A program made the translations under genes and the position numbers. From Eubacteriales bacterium (lineage in GTDB: Bacteria > Bacillota > Clostridia > Oscillospirales > CAG-382): DNA of 64,000 bases. The stretch is from positions 4,214 to 68,213 of the forward strand of contig JAZRTY010000039.1 in the NCBI GenBank assembly GCA_045652245.1, in the 5' to 3' direction. Positions 10,864 through 61,129 of this stretch are shown piece by piece. The notes under the pieces are model-generated. The model saw nothing but the letters and a program-made list of their open reading frames with translations, did no database searches and was not told where the DNA came from. Every line of letters starts with the position of its first letter. Within the stretch, counting starts at the first letter, position 1.

Positions 10864-10874
10864 ATCAAAGCTTG

Positions 10875-10970
10875 ATGTGCGATGAAGCGGGAGGTTGCGA
10901 GGATTGCGAGAGCAAAAACTCGGTAATTTCCGTGGAGTATGTCCGACAACCGGGCGACAGCAAATACTGA
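10875..10970 (+). ncRNA. rpsJ (S10 operon) ribosomal leader, Firmicutes type
   Basis: GATGAAGCGGGAGGTTGC...TTTCCGTGGAG-TATGTCCG...CGGGCGA resembles the conserved Bacillus/Clostridia rpsJ leader. Confidence 0.65.
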
Positions 10971-27391: not shown

Positions 27392-27466
27392 ACTCCCTCA
27401 GTCTCGCTGCGTTCGACAGCTCCCTCGGCGAGGGAGGTGGCAAGGCGCAGCCTTGACGGAAGGAGT
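27392..27466. repeat. REP-like double-hairpin element, family A, upstream of DUF559
   Basis: ACTCCCTCAGTC..GACAGCTCCCTC-GGC-GAGGGAG fused to GTGGC..GACGGAAGGAGT. Confidence 0.85.
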
Positions 27467-27486
27467 AACATTATAAAAGGGGAAAA

Positions 27487-27834
27487 ATGTCATTAAAATA
27501 CAACGGAAAACTGATAGAATATGCAAAAAGCCTTCGTAAAGAAATGACAACACAGGAAAAGCATCTTTGGTACGATTTTTTAAGAATATCTCCTGTGAGA
27601 TTTCAAAGACAGAAGGCAATAGGAAATTATATTGTTGATTTTTATTGTCACCAGGCAAAACTTGTAATAGAACTTGACGGTTCACAGCATTGTGAAGATA
27701 AACAACATGAATATGACAATAAAAGAAGTAGAGAATTAGAGGAAATGGGTATCAGGGTAGTAAGATTTACTAATCTTGAAATAGATACTCAATTTGACGA
27801 GGTCTGTGAAATAATAGCTTCCCTTATTGAGTAA
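27487..27834 (+). CDS. DUF559 / Vsr-like PD-(D/E)XK endonuclease domain protein
   Basis: AKSLRKEMT.QE..LW, FQRQ..IG.YIVDFYC, LVIELDGSQH, D..R...L...G..V.RF.N signature. Confidence 0.9.
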   Translation: MSLKYNGKLIEYAKSLRKEMTTQEKHLWYDFLRISPVRFQRQKAIGNYIVDFYCHQAKLVIELDGSQHCEDKQHEYDNKRSRELEEMGIRVVRFTNLEIDTQFDEVCEIIASLIE

Positions 27835-27989
27835 ACTCCCTCAGTCTCACTGCGTTCGACAGCTCCCTCGGAGAGGGAGCCTTTTAGCCTTCCTCTGTGA
27901 GGAAGGTGGATTTGCCGAAGGCAAAGACGGAAGGAGTAAACTCCCTCAGTCAAAAACAAGTTTTTGACAGCTCCCTCGGCGAGGGAGCC
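27835..27989. repeat. Three alternating family A REP-like units downstream of DUF559
   Basis: Forward unit 27835-27881, inverted-type unit 27887-27937, forward unit 27940-27989. Confidence 0.88.
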
Positions 27990-38846: not shown

Positions 38847-38964
38847 GCCTTCTCCTTGAGGAGAAGGTGGGTTTTGCGAAGCAAAACTCGGATGAGGCGG
38901 AACATTAAAGGTGAAATAACCCCTCATCAGTCACTCCGTGACAGCTTCCCCCAAAGGGGAAGCC
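38847..38964. repeat. REP-like doublet, family B, copy 1
   Basis: GCCTTCTCCTTGAGGAGAAGGTGG..CGGATGAGG, spacer, CCTCATCAGTC..GACAGCTTCCCC..GGGGAAGCC. Confidence 0.88.
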
Positions 38965-39029
38965 TGCAAAAAACGACCTGTTATACGGGTGGGCATTTAC
39001 GGTTTTTAGAAAAATATTTTCAAAACATC

Positions 39030-40751: not shown

Positions 40752-40866
40752 GCCTTCCCCCTCGGGGGAAGGTGGGTTTGCGTAAGCAAACTCGGATGAG
40801 GGGACATTAACGGCGAAATAACCCCTCATCAGTCACTCCGTGACAGCTTCCCCCCAAGGGGAAGCC
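40752..40866. repeat. REP-like doublet, family B, copy 2
   Basis: Near-identical to 38847-38964, including the spacer ACATTAA..GAAATAACCCCTCATCAGTCACTCCGTGACAGC. Confidence 0.88.
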
Positions 40867-40879
40867 TTCAAAAATCCTT

Positions 40880-41010
40880 TCCCTTGACTTGGGCTCTTTT
40901 TGATTACTTTTTCCAGCTCTAAGGTGGGAAAAAGTAATTAGGGGTTTCAGGGGGTGAAACCCCATGAATTCTCGTAAAAAGTGGGATTCTAGGGGGATGA
41001 AATCCTCTGG
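40880..41010. repeat. REP-like repeat, family D (CCCTTGAC..TTTTTGnnTACTTTTT..AAAAAG..GGGGT..GGGG-loop-CCCC)
   Basis: Same organisation as 50741-50843. Confidence 0.6.
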
Positions 41011-43873: not shown

Positions 43874-44083
43874 GCCTTCCCCTTGAGGGGTAACGAAGTG
43901 GCGACGAGGTAGTGAATGACAGCCCGGTGCGGCTGTCAGAGCCGAGTCGGACCGAGCCGCAGCGAGACAGGTGGGTTTTGCGAAGCAAAACTCGGATGAG
44001 GTGGAAATTGTGTTGTGTGAAATATTAGAATAAACACCTCATCAGTCTCGCCTTGCTCGACAGCTTCCCCTCAAGGGGAAGCC
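43874..44083. repeat. REP-like doublet, family B, copy 3, with a nested ~78-nt insertion
   Basis: GCCTTCCCCTTGAGGGG|insert|AGGTGGGTTTTGCGAAGCAAAACTCGGATGAGG .. CCTCATCAGTC..GACAGCTTCCCCTCAAGGGGAAGCC. Confidence 0.85.
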
Positions 44084-50508: not shown

Positions 50509-50610
50509 GTGGGCTGCCGCCCACACCTGCCAAGCTTTTTGAAAAAAGCTTGACCAAAAACTTTAACACTTTGCGCCGTACTATTCCACTTCGTGAAACA
50601 GTACGGCGTG
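50509..50610 (+). repeat. REP-like repeat, family C, copy 3
   Basis: GTGGGCTGCCGCCCACACCTGCC-AAGCTTTTTGAAAAAAGCTT-GACCAAAAACTTTAACACTTT plus CGCCGTACT..AGTACGGCG. Confidence 0.82.
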
Positions 50611-50740
50611 TATTTTTTGCAAAAACAACTTGGTGTTTTTTTCTACACTGCGAGGTGTCAATTCGGAGAATTGACCGAGCCAAGGTTTGTTGCGAGAACA
50701 AAAGATATTAAATTTTTGGGAGAATGTCTTACGGCGAAAG

Positions 50741-50843
50741 GGTTTGTCAAGGGAAAAACCTTTCCCTTGACGAGTGCATTTTTGCATACTTTTTTTGCAC
50801 GAATGTGAAAAAAGCATGTAGGGGTAGTAGGGGGCAACGCCCC
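50741..50843. repeat. REP-like repeat, family D, copy 2
   Basis: GTCAAGGGAAA..TTTCCCTTGAC..TTTTTGCATACTTTTTTT..AAAAAAGCATG..GGGGT..GGGGC-AAC-GCCCC. Confidence 0.6.
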
Positions 50844-50900
50844 ATACAAAACAGTATAAAGTTGGAATTATGGGGGATATAACAAATTCTTGCGAATTTC

Positions 50901-50953
50901 CCCCTCATCCGAGTTTTGTTACGCAAAACCCACCTTCCCCCGAGGGGGAAGGC
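50901..50953. repeat. REP-like single unit, family B, copy 4 (inverted)
   Basis: CCCCTCATCCGAGTTTTG..CAAAACCCACCTTCCCCCGAGGGGGAAGGC, the reverse complement of the unit at 40752. Confidence 0.85.
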
Positions 50954-51021
50954 TATTAATGAATTGCCAACTGCGTTGTCATTGATAACCCCCACCCCCT
51001 ACTGTTACAAAAGTTACTTAA

Positions 51022-58700: not shown

Positions 58701-59903
58701 ATGGCAAAGGCTAAGTTTGAAAGAACAAAACCCCACGTTAATATTGGTACAATCGGTCACGTTGACCACGGTAAGACAACTCTTACAGCAGCTATCACAA
58801 AGACACTCTCCCTCGTAAACGGAAACAATGAGGCTCTCGCTTACGACCAGATCGATAACGCTCCGGAAGAAAAGGCAAGAGGTATTACAATCAACACATG
58901 ACACGTTGAGTACGAAACAGAAAACAGACACTACGCTCACGTTGACTGCCCCGGCCATGCTGACTACGTTAAGAACATGATCACCGGTGCTGCTCAGATG
59001 GACGGTGCTATCCTCGTTGTTGCTGGTACTGACGGTCCTCTCCAGCAGACTCGTGAACACATCCTTCTTGCTCGTCAGGTTGGTGTTCCTGCTATCGTTG
59101 TATTTATGAACAAGTGCGACATGGTTGACGACGACGAACTCCTCGACCTTGTTGAAATGGAAACAAGAGACCTTCTCTCTTCTTACGACTTCCCCGGCGA
59201 TGATCTCCCGATCATCAGAGGTAGCGCTCGTGAAGCTCTCCTTTCTGAAAACACAGACATCAACGCTCCTGAATACGCTTGTATTCTCGAACTCATGAAG
59301 AACGTTGACGAGTACATTCCTACTCCTGACAGAGCTGCTGACCAGCCCTTCCTTATGCCTGTCGAAGACGTATTCTCTATCTCCGGCCGTGGTACTGTTG
59401 CTACTGGTAGAGTTGAAAGAGGTACTCTTAAGATGAACGACGTTGTTGAAATCGTTGGTATTACTGAAACAAAGCAGACTGTTATTACAGGTATCGAAAT
59501 GTTCCACAAGCTCATGGACAGCGCTGAAGCTGGTGACAACGTAGGATGTCTGCTCAGAGGTGTTGATAAGAAGGGTATTGAAAGAGGACAGGTTCTCGCA
59601 AAGCCCGGCACAATCAAGCCTTACACAAAGTTCGTAGCTCAGGTTTACGTTCTTACAGAAAAAGAAGGTGGCCGTCATAAGCCTTTCTTCTCTAACTACA
59701 GACCTCAGTTCTACTTCAGAACAACTGACGTTACAGGCGTTATCACTCTTCCCGAAGGTACAGAAATGTGCAACCCCGGTGACCACGTTGATATGACTGT
59801 TGAACTCATCACTCCTATCGCTATCGAAAAGGGACTTCGTCTCGCTATTCGTGAAGGCGGTAGAACTGTTGGTTCAGGCGTTGTTGCTGAAATCATCGCG
59901 TAA
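58701..59903 (+). pseudogene. tuf: Elongation factor Tu, full-length frame interrupted by one in-frame TGA (58899-58901)
   Basis: [50 protein letters not shown]..; the frame is otherwise continuous for 400 codons. Identity as tuf is certain; pseudogene status is not. Confidence 0.6.
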
Positions 59904-60010
59904 AAAACGTTTTTGAACTACGTTCAAAAAAGTTTATGAAGTAAATCACTTCGTGATTTCTTCGCTATGATATATCTATCATAAAATATAGCTGCTTTAT
60001 GCGGCTTCAG

Positions 60011-60044
60011 TATCGGGGAGCGGCAACGCTTCCCGATATTTTTA
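60011..60044 (+). terminator. Terminator after tuf
   Basis: TATCGGGGAGCG-GCAA-CGCTTCCCGATA followed by TTTTT. Confidence 0.8.
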
Positions 60045-60052
60045 ATATTTAC

Positions 60053-60420
60053 ATCTTTTCAGGGCGGGGTGAAATTCCCCACCGGCGGTAATGCGACGTA
60101 TGTTCGACAAGTCCGAGAAAGCTATTTGTGGGCTGCCGCCCACACCTGCCGACCTTTTTGAAAAAAGCTCGACCAAAAAAGCATAAACACTTCGTGTTTA
60201 TTTCCCGGAAGAAATTGCTTCGCAATTTTTCCCTATATTTAGAAGTTTGCAGAAATATAGACTTCATGAAATAATCTTCGCAAAGTGTTAAAGTTTTTTG
60301 CCCCTCTTTTTTTCAAAAAAGAGGGCGATGGGGTTCGGGGGCGAGAAGCCCCTGAATACAATAAGCTTTGATACGGTGAGATTCCGTAACCGACGGTATA
60401 GTCCGGATAAAGTAAAAGAT
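60053..60420 (+). ncRNA. FMN riboswitch (RFN) with a ~230-nt insertion in the P4 loop
   Basis: 5' half AGGGCGGGGTGAAATTCCCCACCGGCGGT..AAGTCCG; 3' half GATACGGTGAGATTCCGTAACCGACGGTATAGTCCGGAT; P1 ATCTTTT/AAAAGAT; upstream of ribU. Confidence 0.88.
60128..60356. repeat. Inverted pair of family C REP-like units inside the FMN aptamer
   Basis: 60128-60180 matches 50509-50560; the reverse complement of 60282-60355 matches the family C pattern at 40611. Confidence 0.85.
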
Positions 60421-60469
60421 ACCGTATCTTTTGGCTAATAAATATTAGCTGCAGATTATAGTATTTTCG

Positions 60470-60500
60470 TCCGAGGAAAGTGTTTTCCCTCGGATTTTTT
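60470..60500 (+). terminator. Expression-platform terminator of the FMN riboswitch
   Basis: TCCGAGGAAA..TTCCCTCGGA followed by TTTTT. Confidence 0.7.
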
Positions 60501-60550
60501 ACTTTACATTTTAAAGAAAGCCAAATTTTAAAATGAAAGTGAGTTAATCT

Positions 60551-61129
60551 ATGAAAAACGAAAATAAAATCTCAAAATTACTTGATATTAAGACAATTGT
60601 ACTTATCGGAGTGTTGTCAGCGCTCTCGTATGTACTGATGATATTTCCTAAAATCCCCGGAATTATACCTGCGTTTCCTTTTTTGGATATCGATTTTTCT
60701 GACGTACCGGCGCTTCTTGCATCTGTTGCTGCAACTCCGGTAGCAGGCGTGATTGTGGTACTTATTAAGAACATTCTGCATCTTACCGTTACAAGCACAG
60801 GTGGCGTAGGTGAACTGTCAAACTTCATTTGCGGTGCAGCCCTCGTGTTTACCTGCGGTATTACAACTAAGTATATGTTCCGTAAAATGCGTTATAAATA
60901 TAAATTGCCGATAACACTCGTTATTGCAACTATTGCACAGCTCATAGCTGCAGTTCTCGGAAATTATTTTCTTATGATTCCACTCTATAACATCCAGGCT
61001 ATAGCGAAGGTGTATATTTTTACAGGTGTAATTCCGTTTAATCTGATTAAGGATGCCCTTGTTTGTGTAGTTTTTTACTTTCTTTATATACTTATCTATC
61101 CGAAAATTCAGAAAAGAATGTACTACTAA
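60551..61129 (+). CDS. ribU: ECF transporter S component, riboflavin
   Basis: FPFLDIDFSDVPAL, GGVGELSNF and PFNLIK motifs; downstream of the FMN riboswitch. Confidence 0.88.
   Translation: MKNENKISKLLDIKTIVLIGVLSALSYVLMIFPKIPGIIPAFPFLDIDFSDVPALLASVAATPVAGVIVVLIKNILHLTVTSTGGVGELSNFICGAALVFTCGITTKYMFRKMRYKYKLPITLVIATIAQLIAAVLGNYFLMIPLYNIQAIAKVYIFTGVIPFNLIKDALVCVVFYFLYILIYPKIQKRMYY

Follow-up and report, generated by a model that had tools for sequence, protein, structure and literature searches.

Can the sensor of a riboswitch be interrupted by about 230 nucleotides (nt) of repeat DNA and still work? The question arises at a flavin mononucleotide (FMN) aptamer of 368 nt (60053-60420) in a 64,000-nt stretch of DNA, hereafter the window, from a Eubacteriales bacterium (contig JAZRTY010000039.1 of assembly GCA_045652245.1; genome G000 below). 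The aptamer sits in the spacer between tuf and ribU, the gene for the S component of an energy-coupling factor (ECF) riboflavin transporter, and its two halves lie about 230 nt apart. We favor the reading, with a probability of about 0.6, of an intact and working FMN riboswitch in the ribU leader that carries a composite repeat in helix P4. The structural part of that reading alone, an intact FMN aptamer at 60053-60420 with a repeat in P4, is very likely correct. The element is a known riboswitch in an unusual form that evades annotation.

Identity of the split aptamer

At gathering scores, an Rfam scan of the whole window found no FMN riboswitch and reported only a lysine riboswitch (213-384; 83.2 bits) and an S10-Clostridia ribosomal leader (10873-10957; 38.5 bits), both above their cut-offs. 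A permissive scan of 59950-60560 returned two matches to RF00050, one at 60051-60171 (34.0 bits, E 5e-6) and one at 60305-60421 (46.6 bits, E 1.9e-9); the gathering score of this family is 66.2 bits. The printed alignments bear out the first match for the 5' strand of P1 (P1-5'), P2, and P3, and the second, at model positions of about 84-138, for P5, P6, and P1-3'. Each supplies the absent half by gaps or by a hairpin borrowed from the insert, which serves as a false P3 in the second match. These are the sole RF00050 matches in the 1.94-Mb assembly (47 contigs, 92% complete), and no second copy of either aptamer half was found there. The intact sequence misses the gathering threshold because P4 holds about 230 nt of repeat DNA. 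The original prediction, which described two intact halves of the element about 230 nt apart and warned that covariance searches could miss them, has held on both points.

Both halves lie on the plus strand and can be mapped helix by helix. The 5' half (60053-60127) comprises P1-5' (60053-60060), P2 (60066-60080), one side of the junction pair (60083-60084), P3 (60085-60116), and P4-5' (60119-60123). The 3' half (60358-60420) comprises P4-3' (60364-60368), P5 (60372-60388), the other side of the junction pair (60391-60392), P6 (60394-60405), and P1-3' (60413-60420). The P4 stem, which had been predicted to be retained, is indeed present: 60118-60129 and 60358-60369 are complementary at 10 of 12 positions, arranged as six pairs, a 2x2 mismatch, and four pairs, and the basal five pairs (60119-60123 with 60364-60368) align with P4 of relatives. 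The element has two features of RF00050, helices P1 to P6 around one junction and the conserved core nucleotides.

The core was compared with its relatives in an alignment of 24 sequences, consisting of window positions 60051-60422 and 23 relatives. The window carries the conserved residue in 35 of 35 invariant columns and in 18 nearly invariant ones, and 29 of the 31 mapped consensus pairs are standard. One of the two exceptions, a G.A at the base of P3, is common to 10 of the 24 sequences. The consensus structure itself is well founded on this alignment, with 87.2% of cells paired and 19 pairs that change on both sides. Its covariation score is 0.315, against 0.136 in shuffles (none of 500 reached the observed value) and at most 0.119 when the partners were slid.

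Excision of the insert in silico restores an ordinary aptamer. A profile was built with nhmmer from the aptamers of 21 relatives above the Rfam cut-off, whose own sequences score 68-102. On the intact region, this profile gives two half matches of 41.0 and 39.3 bits, covering profile positions 4-64 in the 5' half and 42-117 in the 3' half. Removal of 60128-60356, the excision set as a test by the original prediction, yields a single full-length match over positions 4-117 at 87.0 bits, a score from a sequence profile that stands in for the Rfam covariance model. Two alternative deletion boundaries give 86.9 and 86.5 bits.

A survey of 151 sampled genomes of the family shows how unusual this aptamer is. 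An FMN match was present in 129 of them, above the cut-off in 120 and below it in nine. Matches above the cut-off span 114-227 nt by their coordinates, compared with 368 nt in the window. Those below comprise G040, G053, G037, G061, G012, and four genomes of the present genus (G000, G001, G002, and G005); only these four and G012 score under 47 bits. Five of the nine were inspected: G000, G001, G005, and G012 have large loop inserts, and G002 retains an insert and the 3' half only. In another genus, g7, expanded FMN aptamers occur in G012 (L025, 1503-1804; 36.1 bits) and G061 (C71:5824-6086; 49.9 bits), P4 being enlarged by about 91 nt and the P6 loop by about 97 nt. These segments are single-copy and are shared by the two species at 79% and 87% identity. 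Since aptamers with such loop inserts fall below the Rfam cut-off, regulon reconstructions from metagenome-assembled genomes (MAGs) miss these switches; a standard Rfam pass leaves G000 without any FMN riboswitch.

Composition and family of the repeat

The insert is about 225-230 nt long, with ends that cannot be fixed to the base, and consists of three parts. The left end module (60128-60185) forms two hairpins followed by an A-rich tail. The variable middle (60186-60278) contains an AT-rich hairpin and two hairpins with TTCG or CTTCG loops, at about 60187-60205 and 60217-60234, in agreement with the UUCG-type hairpins that the original prediction noted there. The right end module (60279-60356) is an imperfect inverted copy of the left one. 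In reverse complement, 60285-60356 is identical to the left end at 48 of 61 positions, and the two ends align with a score of 62, compared with 26 +/- 4.6 (maximum 42) in 500 shuffles. The original prediction had proposed an inverted unit at the right end and a first 23 nt identical to a copy at 50509; the alignment confirms the former, and the latter is exact, as insert nt 1-23 are identical to 50509-50531. The match extends over 52 nt at 94% identity (50509-50560, family D14). An open reading frame (ORF) of 72 aa on the minus strand (60049-60267) overlaps both aptamer and insert and was regarded as spurious.

The modules recur throughout the genome. The left-end 23-mer has nine copies in G000 at three or fewer mismatches, and the same pattern read backwards, used as a control, has no match in seven genomes. 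The right-end 22-mer has eight copies, and the first 49 nt of the middle module recur at 98% identity on three other contigs (C29, C31, and C42). Modules of the insert are 94-100% identical to other copies in the genome and are also present in ordinary intergenic spacers of G000. The insert is thus one member of a modular repeat family dispersed through this genome. With several copies at the ends of contigs, the true copy number is probably higher. About three copies have both ends (the one in P4 of the window and those on C16 and C12); their middles differ, and many copies lie at contig ends. On C16, the two ends are about 250 nt apart around a different middle, and the copy is flanked by a short inverted repeat, AAAGCA...TGCTTT. 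Targeting of hairpin loops by the repeat was considered and set aside: complete copies are too few for a test, and pairing flanks occur at C16 only. Beyond this genome, the public set contains the exact left-end word in just three species-level genomes, all of them MAGs of uncultured Clostridia.

What kind of element this is can be judged from its build and its associations. Terminal inverted repeats, a feature of miniature inverted-repeat transposable elements (MITEs), are present. A direct repeat of the kind left by target-site duplication could not be read at the junctions when filled and empty sites were compared. No transposase with these ends was found in a search that covered PF01797 only. 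Y1_Tnp was matched once in the genome, by a fragment of 81 aa that lies at the end of a contig (C5:2-175); the insert modules were not found beside it, and the hairpins there are unrelated. For this reason, the insert looks more like a MITE-like composite repeat, MITE-like or resembling a bacterial interspersed mosaic element (BIME), than like a repetitive extragenic palindrome (REP). The earlier label of a REP doublet could not be established: the family has about nine copies, where REPs number in the hundreds, its inverted ends are of about 60 nt with two hairpins each, and no REP-associated tyrosine transposase (RAYT) is tied to it.

The comparison with bacterial MITEs and mosaic repeats (BOX, RUP, Correia, and BIME/REP; PMC3184786) leads to a similar picture. 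As reviewed there, such repeats are short, non-coding, multi-copy, modular, hairpin-rich, and intergenic, with terminal inverted repeats, and the present family shares these traits. In contrast to them, it has no readable target-site duplication, no parent insertion sequence or RAYT tied to it, and a low copy number (about nine). The riboswitch passages of the same source describe no repeat inside an aptamer (PMC3184786). A search of open-access papers and preprints turned up no account of a mobile repeat within a natural riboswitch aptamer. Modular hairpin repeats abound across the genome. Within the window, intergenic spacers hold several other such families (D3, D5, D8, D9, and D11), at 27392-27987, 38865-38972, 40769-40912, 43969-44080, and 50509-50960.

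P4 in relatives and movement of the repeat

Empty sites, the check set by the original prediction, are found both in the genus and in public sequencing data. G006, G003, and G004 have unsplit aptamers of 147, 181, and 168 nt (72.3, 70.0, and 87.9 bits) with no member of this repeat in P4, which in G006 is a plain hairpin with a 4-nt loop. Contigs of four public runs (Logan) were aligned to window positions 59700-60900. In run X2, a contig of 2163 nt aligns to 60060-60126 with 3 differences and, after only 20 further letters, to 60374-60888 with 65 differences in 515 positions; it has an empty P4. Its ribU DNA is about 87% identical to that of the window, which makes it the closest relative seen; the ribU DNA of the genus genomes is 65-69% identical. 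Taken together, the match restored by excision, the empty sites, and the multi-copy ends support a movement of the repeat into, or out of, P4. The earlier suggestion that the insert is a mobile repeat is supported by the same multi-copy ends and empty sites.

Filled sites differ in content and direction. G005 carries a 226-nt P4 insert at the same place and in the same orientation as G000, with near-identical end modules around another middle. A 319-nt contig of run X1 matches 60062-60179 and 60291-60396, with 91 letters in place of the 111-nt middle. The insert of G001, 205 nt long, occupies this place as well but is inverted; it is 81.6% identical to the G005 insert over 234 nt. In run X3, one contig (depth 3.9, shorter side 55 letters) joins 60125 to 60374 on opposite strands; this join could be an allele with an inverted insert or a fold-back assembly artefact at the P4 palindrome. 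In G002 (C90:1-830), the insert and the 3' half stand in front of ribU, and an unrelated divergent gene replaces the 5' half, which was not found anywhere in the assembly. There, insert and 3' half are 98.7% identical to G005 over 307 nt within flanks of 68% identity. The G002 contig is a probable chimera, or else reflects a recent exchange between species; it looks chimeric and was dropped as evidence of an insertion event.

These observations bear on whether the split aptamer exists at all. A MAG assembler could have joined the halves of an ordinary aptamer through a repeat: G000 is in 47 contigs with repeats often at their ends, there is a probable chimera at the same locus in G002, and the window's own insert middle was not covered by any of the four public runs aligned. 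This explanation is very improbable. The halves follow one another in the proper order on the same strand, with exact complementarity in P1 and P4; neither has a second copy in the genome; the independent assemblies of G001 and G005 carry inserts in the same loop; and the X1 contig runs from the 5' half through both end modules into the 3' half. Public data add little beyond these contigs. No public run contained half or more of the search words (best share 0.12), scans of metagenome contigs with a 34-nt word from the 3' half and a 36-nt word from the 5' half returned no stretches for either, and an RNA run (X16) covered only generic conserved parts of the aptamer and is uninformative on expression.

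The number of events is harder to read. Among the three species with an insert, aptamer cores share 88-93% identity, against 83-87% with those of G003 and G006, a pattern that would fit one old insertion followed by a flip in place and a swap of the middle. A tree of ribU and a neighboring gene groups G001 with the empty-site G006 (86%) and G000 with G005 (74%); its support is weak overall (64-86%), and it conflicts with the distribution of an extension in P2. This topology and the empty closest relative would fit several hits, or losses. A species tree from elongation factor G (EF-G) was abandoned because the protein is too conserved (90-95%). Either way, the P4 site is dynamic and the repeat has moved.

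The P2 extension is an observation of its own. G005 (L024, minus strand, oriented about 1165-1275) has a further insert of about 95 nt in the P2 loop, with a hairpin-plus-GACC-tail module like those of the repeat family and a short tandem run of TTCACT type. At this point of L2, a shorter additional helix is present in G003 and G006. Because L2 normally docks on L6, it is a less obviously tolerant place for an insertion.

A bolder reading of the same pattern is that a mobile repeat which seeks hairpin loops lands or flips preferentially in the P4 loop of this riboswitch lineage. The loop would have been hit, or its insert flipped, at least three times (forward in G000; forward with other cargo in G005 and X1; inverted in G001), with an excision footprint in the closest, empty relative and an aptamer that works with 200-250 nt in its middle. 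We regard this as unlikely.

A rival reading treats the insert as a domesticated part of the switch: a P4 outgrowth kept for use, as a pause or folding delay, a platform for a protein or small RNA, or protection of the leader. It would descend from one ancestral insertion, later flipped in place and exchanged between species together with the riboswitch. In this direction point the facts that the riboswitch copy is the sole close copy of the repeat in each of the G001, G002, and G005 assemblies, that the inserts of G001 and G005 are more alike than their ribU DNA (81.6% versus about 67%), that insert-bearing cores resemble one another more than they resemble those of G003 and G006, and that G002 and G005 share insert and 3' half within diverged flanks. 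However, orientation differs between G001 and G005, so that conservation extends to hairpin potential and not to one particular RNA sequence; G000 and the X1 contig have another middle; the insert is absent from close relatives; its modules are also found in ordinary spacers between genes of G000; and the G002 contig may be a chimeric assembly. Such domestication therefore appears improbable. More diverged modules, read by eye, lie just downstream in G001.

Probable function of the interrupted switch

The leader is laid out as expected for a switch that controls ribU. In all seven genus genomes ribU is present, each time downstream of an FMN element. In the window, it lies on the plus strand at 60551-61129 (192 aa; PF12822, E 1.6e-27; PF07155, E 3.9e-8) and starts 130 nt 3' of the aptamer. 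Between them, a candidate expression-platform terminator (60470-60500, plus strand) has a TCCGAGG/CCTCGGA stem followed by six T. It formed in every fold computed, constrained or free, of 60372-60505. The consensus terminator scan, with a loop limit of 8 nt, missed it; the stem is bulged, and the hexamer loop is 11 nt by hand count. The strand made up of J6/1 and P1-3' (AAAGTAAAAGAT, 60407-60420) is complementary over 12 positions to the terminator T-run and the ACTTT behind it (60494-60505), and by eye a stretch 3' of the terminator, TTTTTACTTTACATTTT, is common to G000, G003, and G005. This complementarity, with the TTTTTACTTTACATTTT stretch, may be part of the expression platform. A likeness of 60111-60121 to the 5' arm of the terminator was considered as an antiterminator and dropped, as by eye it is not conserved in G005.

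Upstream, tuf (58701-59903) encodes elongation factor Tu (EF-Tu) and ends at 59903, 5' of the aptamer. Its terminator, a plus-strand hairpin of 14 pairs (seven of them G-C) with a T-run at 60009-60040, leaves only 12 nt to the aptamer. These 12 nt (60041-60052, from tuf terminator to P1) showed no promoter-like site in the scan, and transcription of the ribU leader may come from read-through out of tuf. In G003, the spacer is of about 90 nt and contains a TTGACG-17-TATAAA site, read by eye. The tuf frame runs its full 400 residues except for an in-frame TGA at 58899-58901, after ...GITINT, which could be genuine, as a nonsense or recoded codon, or stem from an error of assembly or sequencing or from the mixing of two tuf copies.

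Tolerance of the insert is suggested by structure. The region 60119-60370 folds into local hairpins with the AAGCU/AGCUU base of P4 closed (-83.6 kcal/mol, z -5.98), the inserts of G001 and G005 fold in the same manner and are as structured (z -8.5 and -7.3), and no terminator-like site was found within the insert by scan. Moreover, an aptamer opened at P4 still binds FMN. The Fusobacterium nucleatum aptamer was made as a two-piece RNA whose strands meet only by Watson-Crick pairing in P4; it binds FMN and crystallizes with it, and on folding its L4 is solvent-exposed, the tertiary contacts being those of L2 with L6 and of L3 with L5 (PMC3201879). Because the P4 loop makes no tertiary contact and can be cut without loss of FMN binding, the insert is expected to behave as an inert outgrowth.

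The favored reading can be stated as a mechanism. The ribU leader contains an FMN riboswitch that appears to be of the transcription-terminator type. Its P4 loop carries a composite repeat of about 230 nt, with two inverted end modules of about 60 nt, two hairpins in each, and a variable hairpin middle. A mobile hairpin repeat would have been brought there by transposition or recombination. Folded as local hairpins closed by the base of P4, the insert would be inert, and the switch would still sense FMN and terminate transcription before ribU. The only effect of the insert would be about 230 nt of extra transcription between the halves of the sensor. The repeat presumably survives in P4 because P4 is among the few harmless places in the aptamer.

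Several observations weigh against this reading. The minimum-free-energy fold of the whole 368 nt lacks the consensus junction. No clear antiterminator was predicted in the constrained or free folds of 60372-60505, in which the terminator always formed. The T-rich arm of an insert hairpin (about 60303-60313) resembles P1-5', for which it was taken in a false P1 of the Infernal match, and could compete with the true P1. P1 itself is weakened by the second non-standard pair of the aptamer, a C.U at its top (60060 with 60413); the four other genus aptamers with the 3' strand AAAGUAAAAGAU have A there and form an A-U pair. The excision score of 87.0 bits comes from a surrogate of the covariance model. 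The single close copies in G001, G002, and G005 sit awkwardly with recent transposition, although MAGs lose repeats. Finally, the insertion in G000 may be recent: the closest relative is empty and the modules are 94-100% identical to other copies, so the intact core of G000 may only mean that there was too little time for decay.

Another rival reading is a dead switch. A recent repeat would have broken the riboswitch, either kinetically, by misfolding of the 5' half while the extra 230 nt are transcribed, or by way of the weakened P1, leaving ribU constitutively on or off and the halves without time for decay. The signs of a recent insertion, the C.U pair, the missing antiterminator, and the fold without a consensus junction would all suit it, as would the fact that this is the sole FMN element found in an assembly 92% complete. 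However, G001 and G005, which carry homologous inserts, keep 107 of 115 core columns identical. If their inserts are orthologous, the aptamers stayed constant while the inserts drifted to 81.6% identity and the ribU DNA to about 67%. Paired changes between A-U and G-C in P5 and distal P3 separate G000 from G001 and G005 and keep the helices. The two-piece aptamer opened at P4 binds FMN, as noted above (PMC3201879), and the g7 expansions are conserved between species. Loss of function is a serious but rather unlikely possibility, and, judged from sequence comparison, the switch probably still works.

Besides the repeats compared above, three known systems come closest to this element. Like the ribU-type RF00050 leaders of Firmicutes, it has a six-helix junction, an invariant core, a riboflavin transporter downstream, and a hairpin with a T-run after the aptamer; unlike them, its aptamer is 368 nt long and scores below the gathering threshold. 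As in the two-piece F. nucleatum aptamer used for crystallography, the halves are held only by P4 pairing and P1, without the native L4 (PMC3201879 and its reference 19). Whereas that break is engineered and the pieces meet in trans, the halves in the window are tethered by a long structured RNA and must fold during transcription. With the g7 aptamers of G012 and G061, it shares large segments in peripheral loops, an intact core, and a score below the Rfam cut-off; in contrast to the insert in the window, the g7 segments are single-copy, conserved between two species, and outside a dispersed repeat family.

If the switch works, nature shows here the design of the crystallographers: P1 and the base of P4 suffice to bring together the halves of an FMN sensor. 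The empty, filled, and inverted states of P4 form a matched natural set for the tolerance of a kinetically driven riboswitch to intervening transcription. The locus also illustrates cleanly how small hairpin repeats remodel a regulatory RNA: among close relatives, one site shows gain, inversion, swap of the middle, and possibly loss. Should P4 prove to be a preferred landing site, and the aptamer work with the repeat inside, the locus would offer a natural metabolite sensor put together from halves that are transcribed seconds apart, and riboswitch engineering would gain a natural insertion port. The case shows how far such sensors can be stretched.
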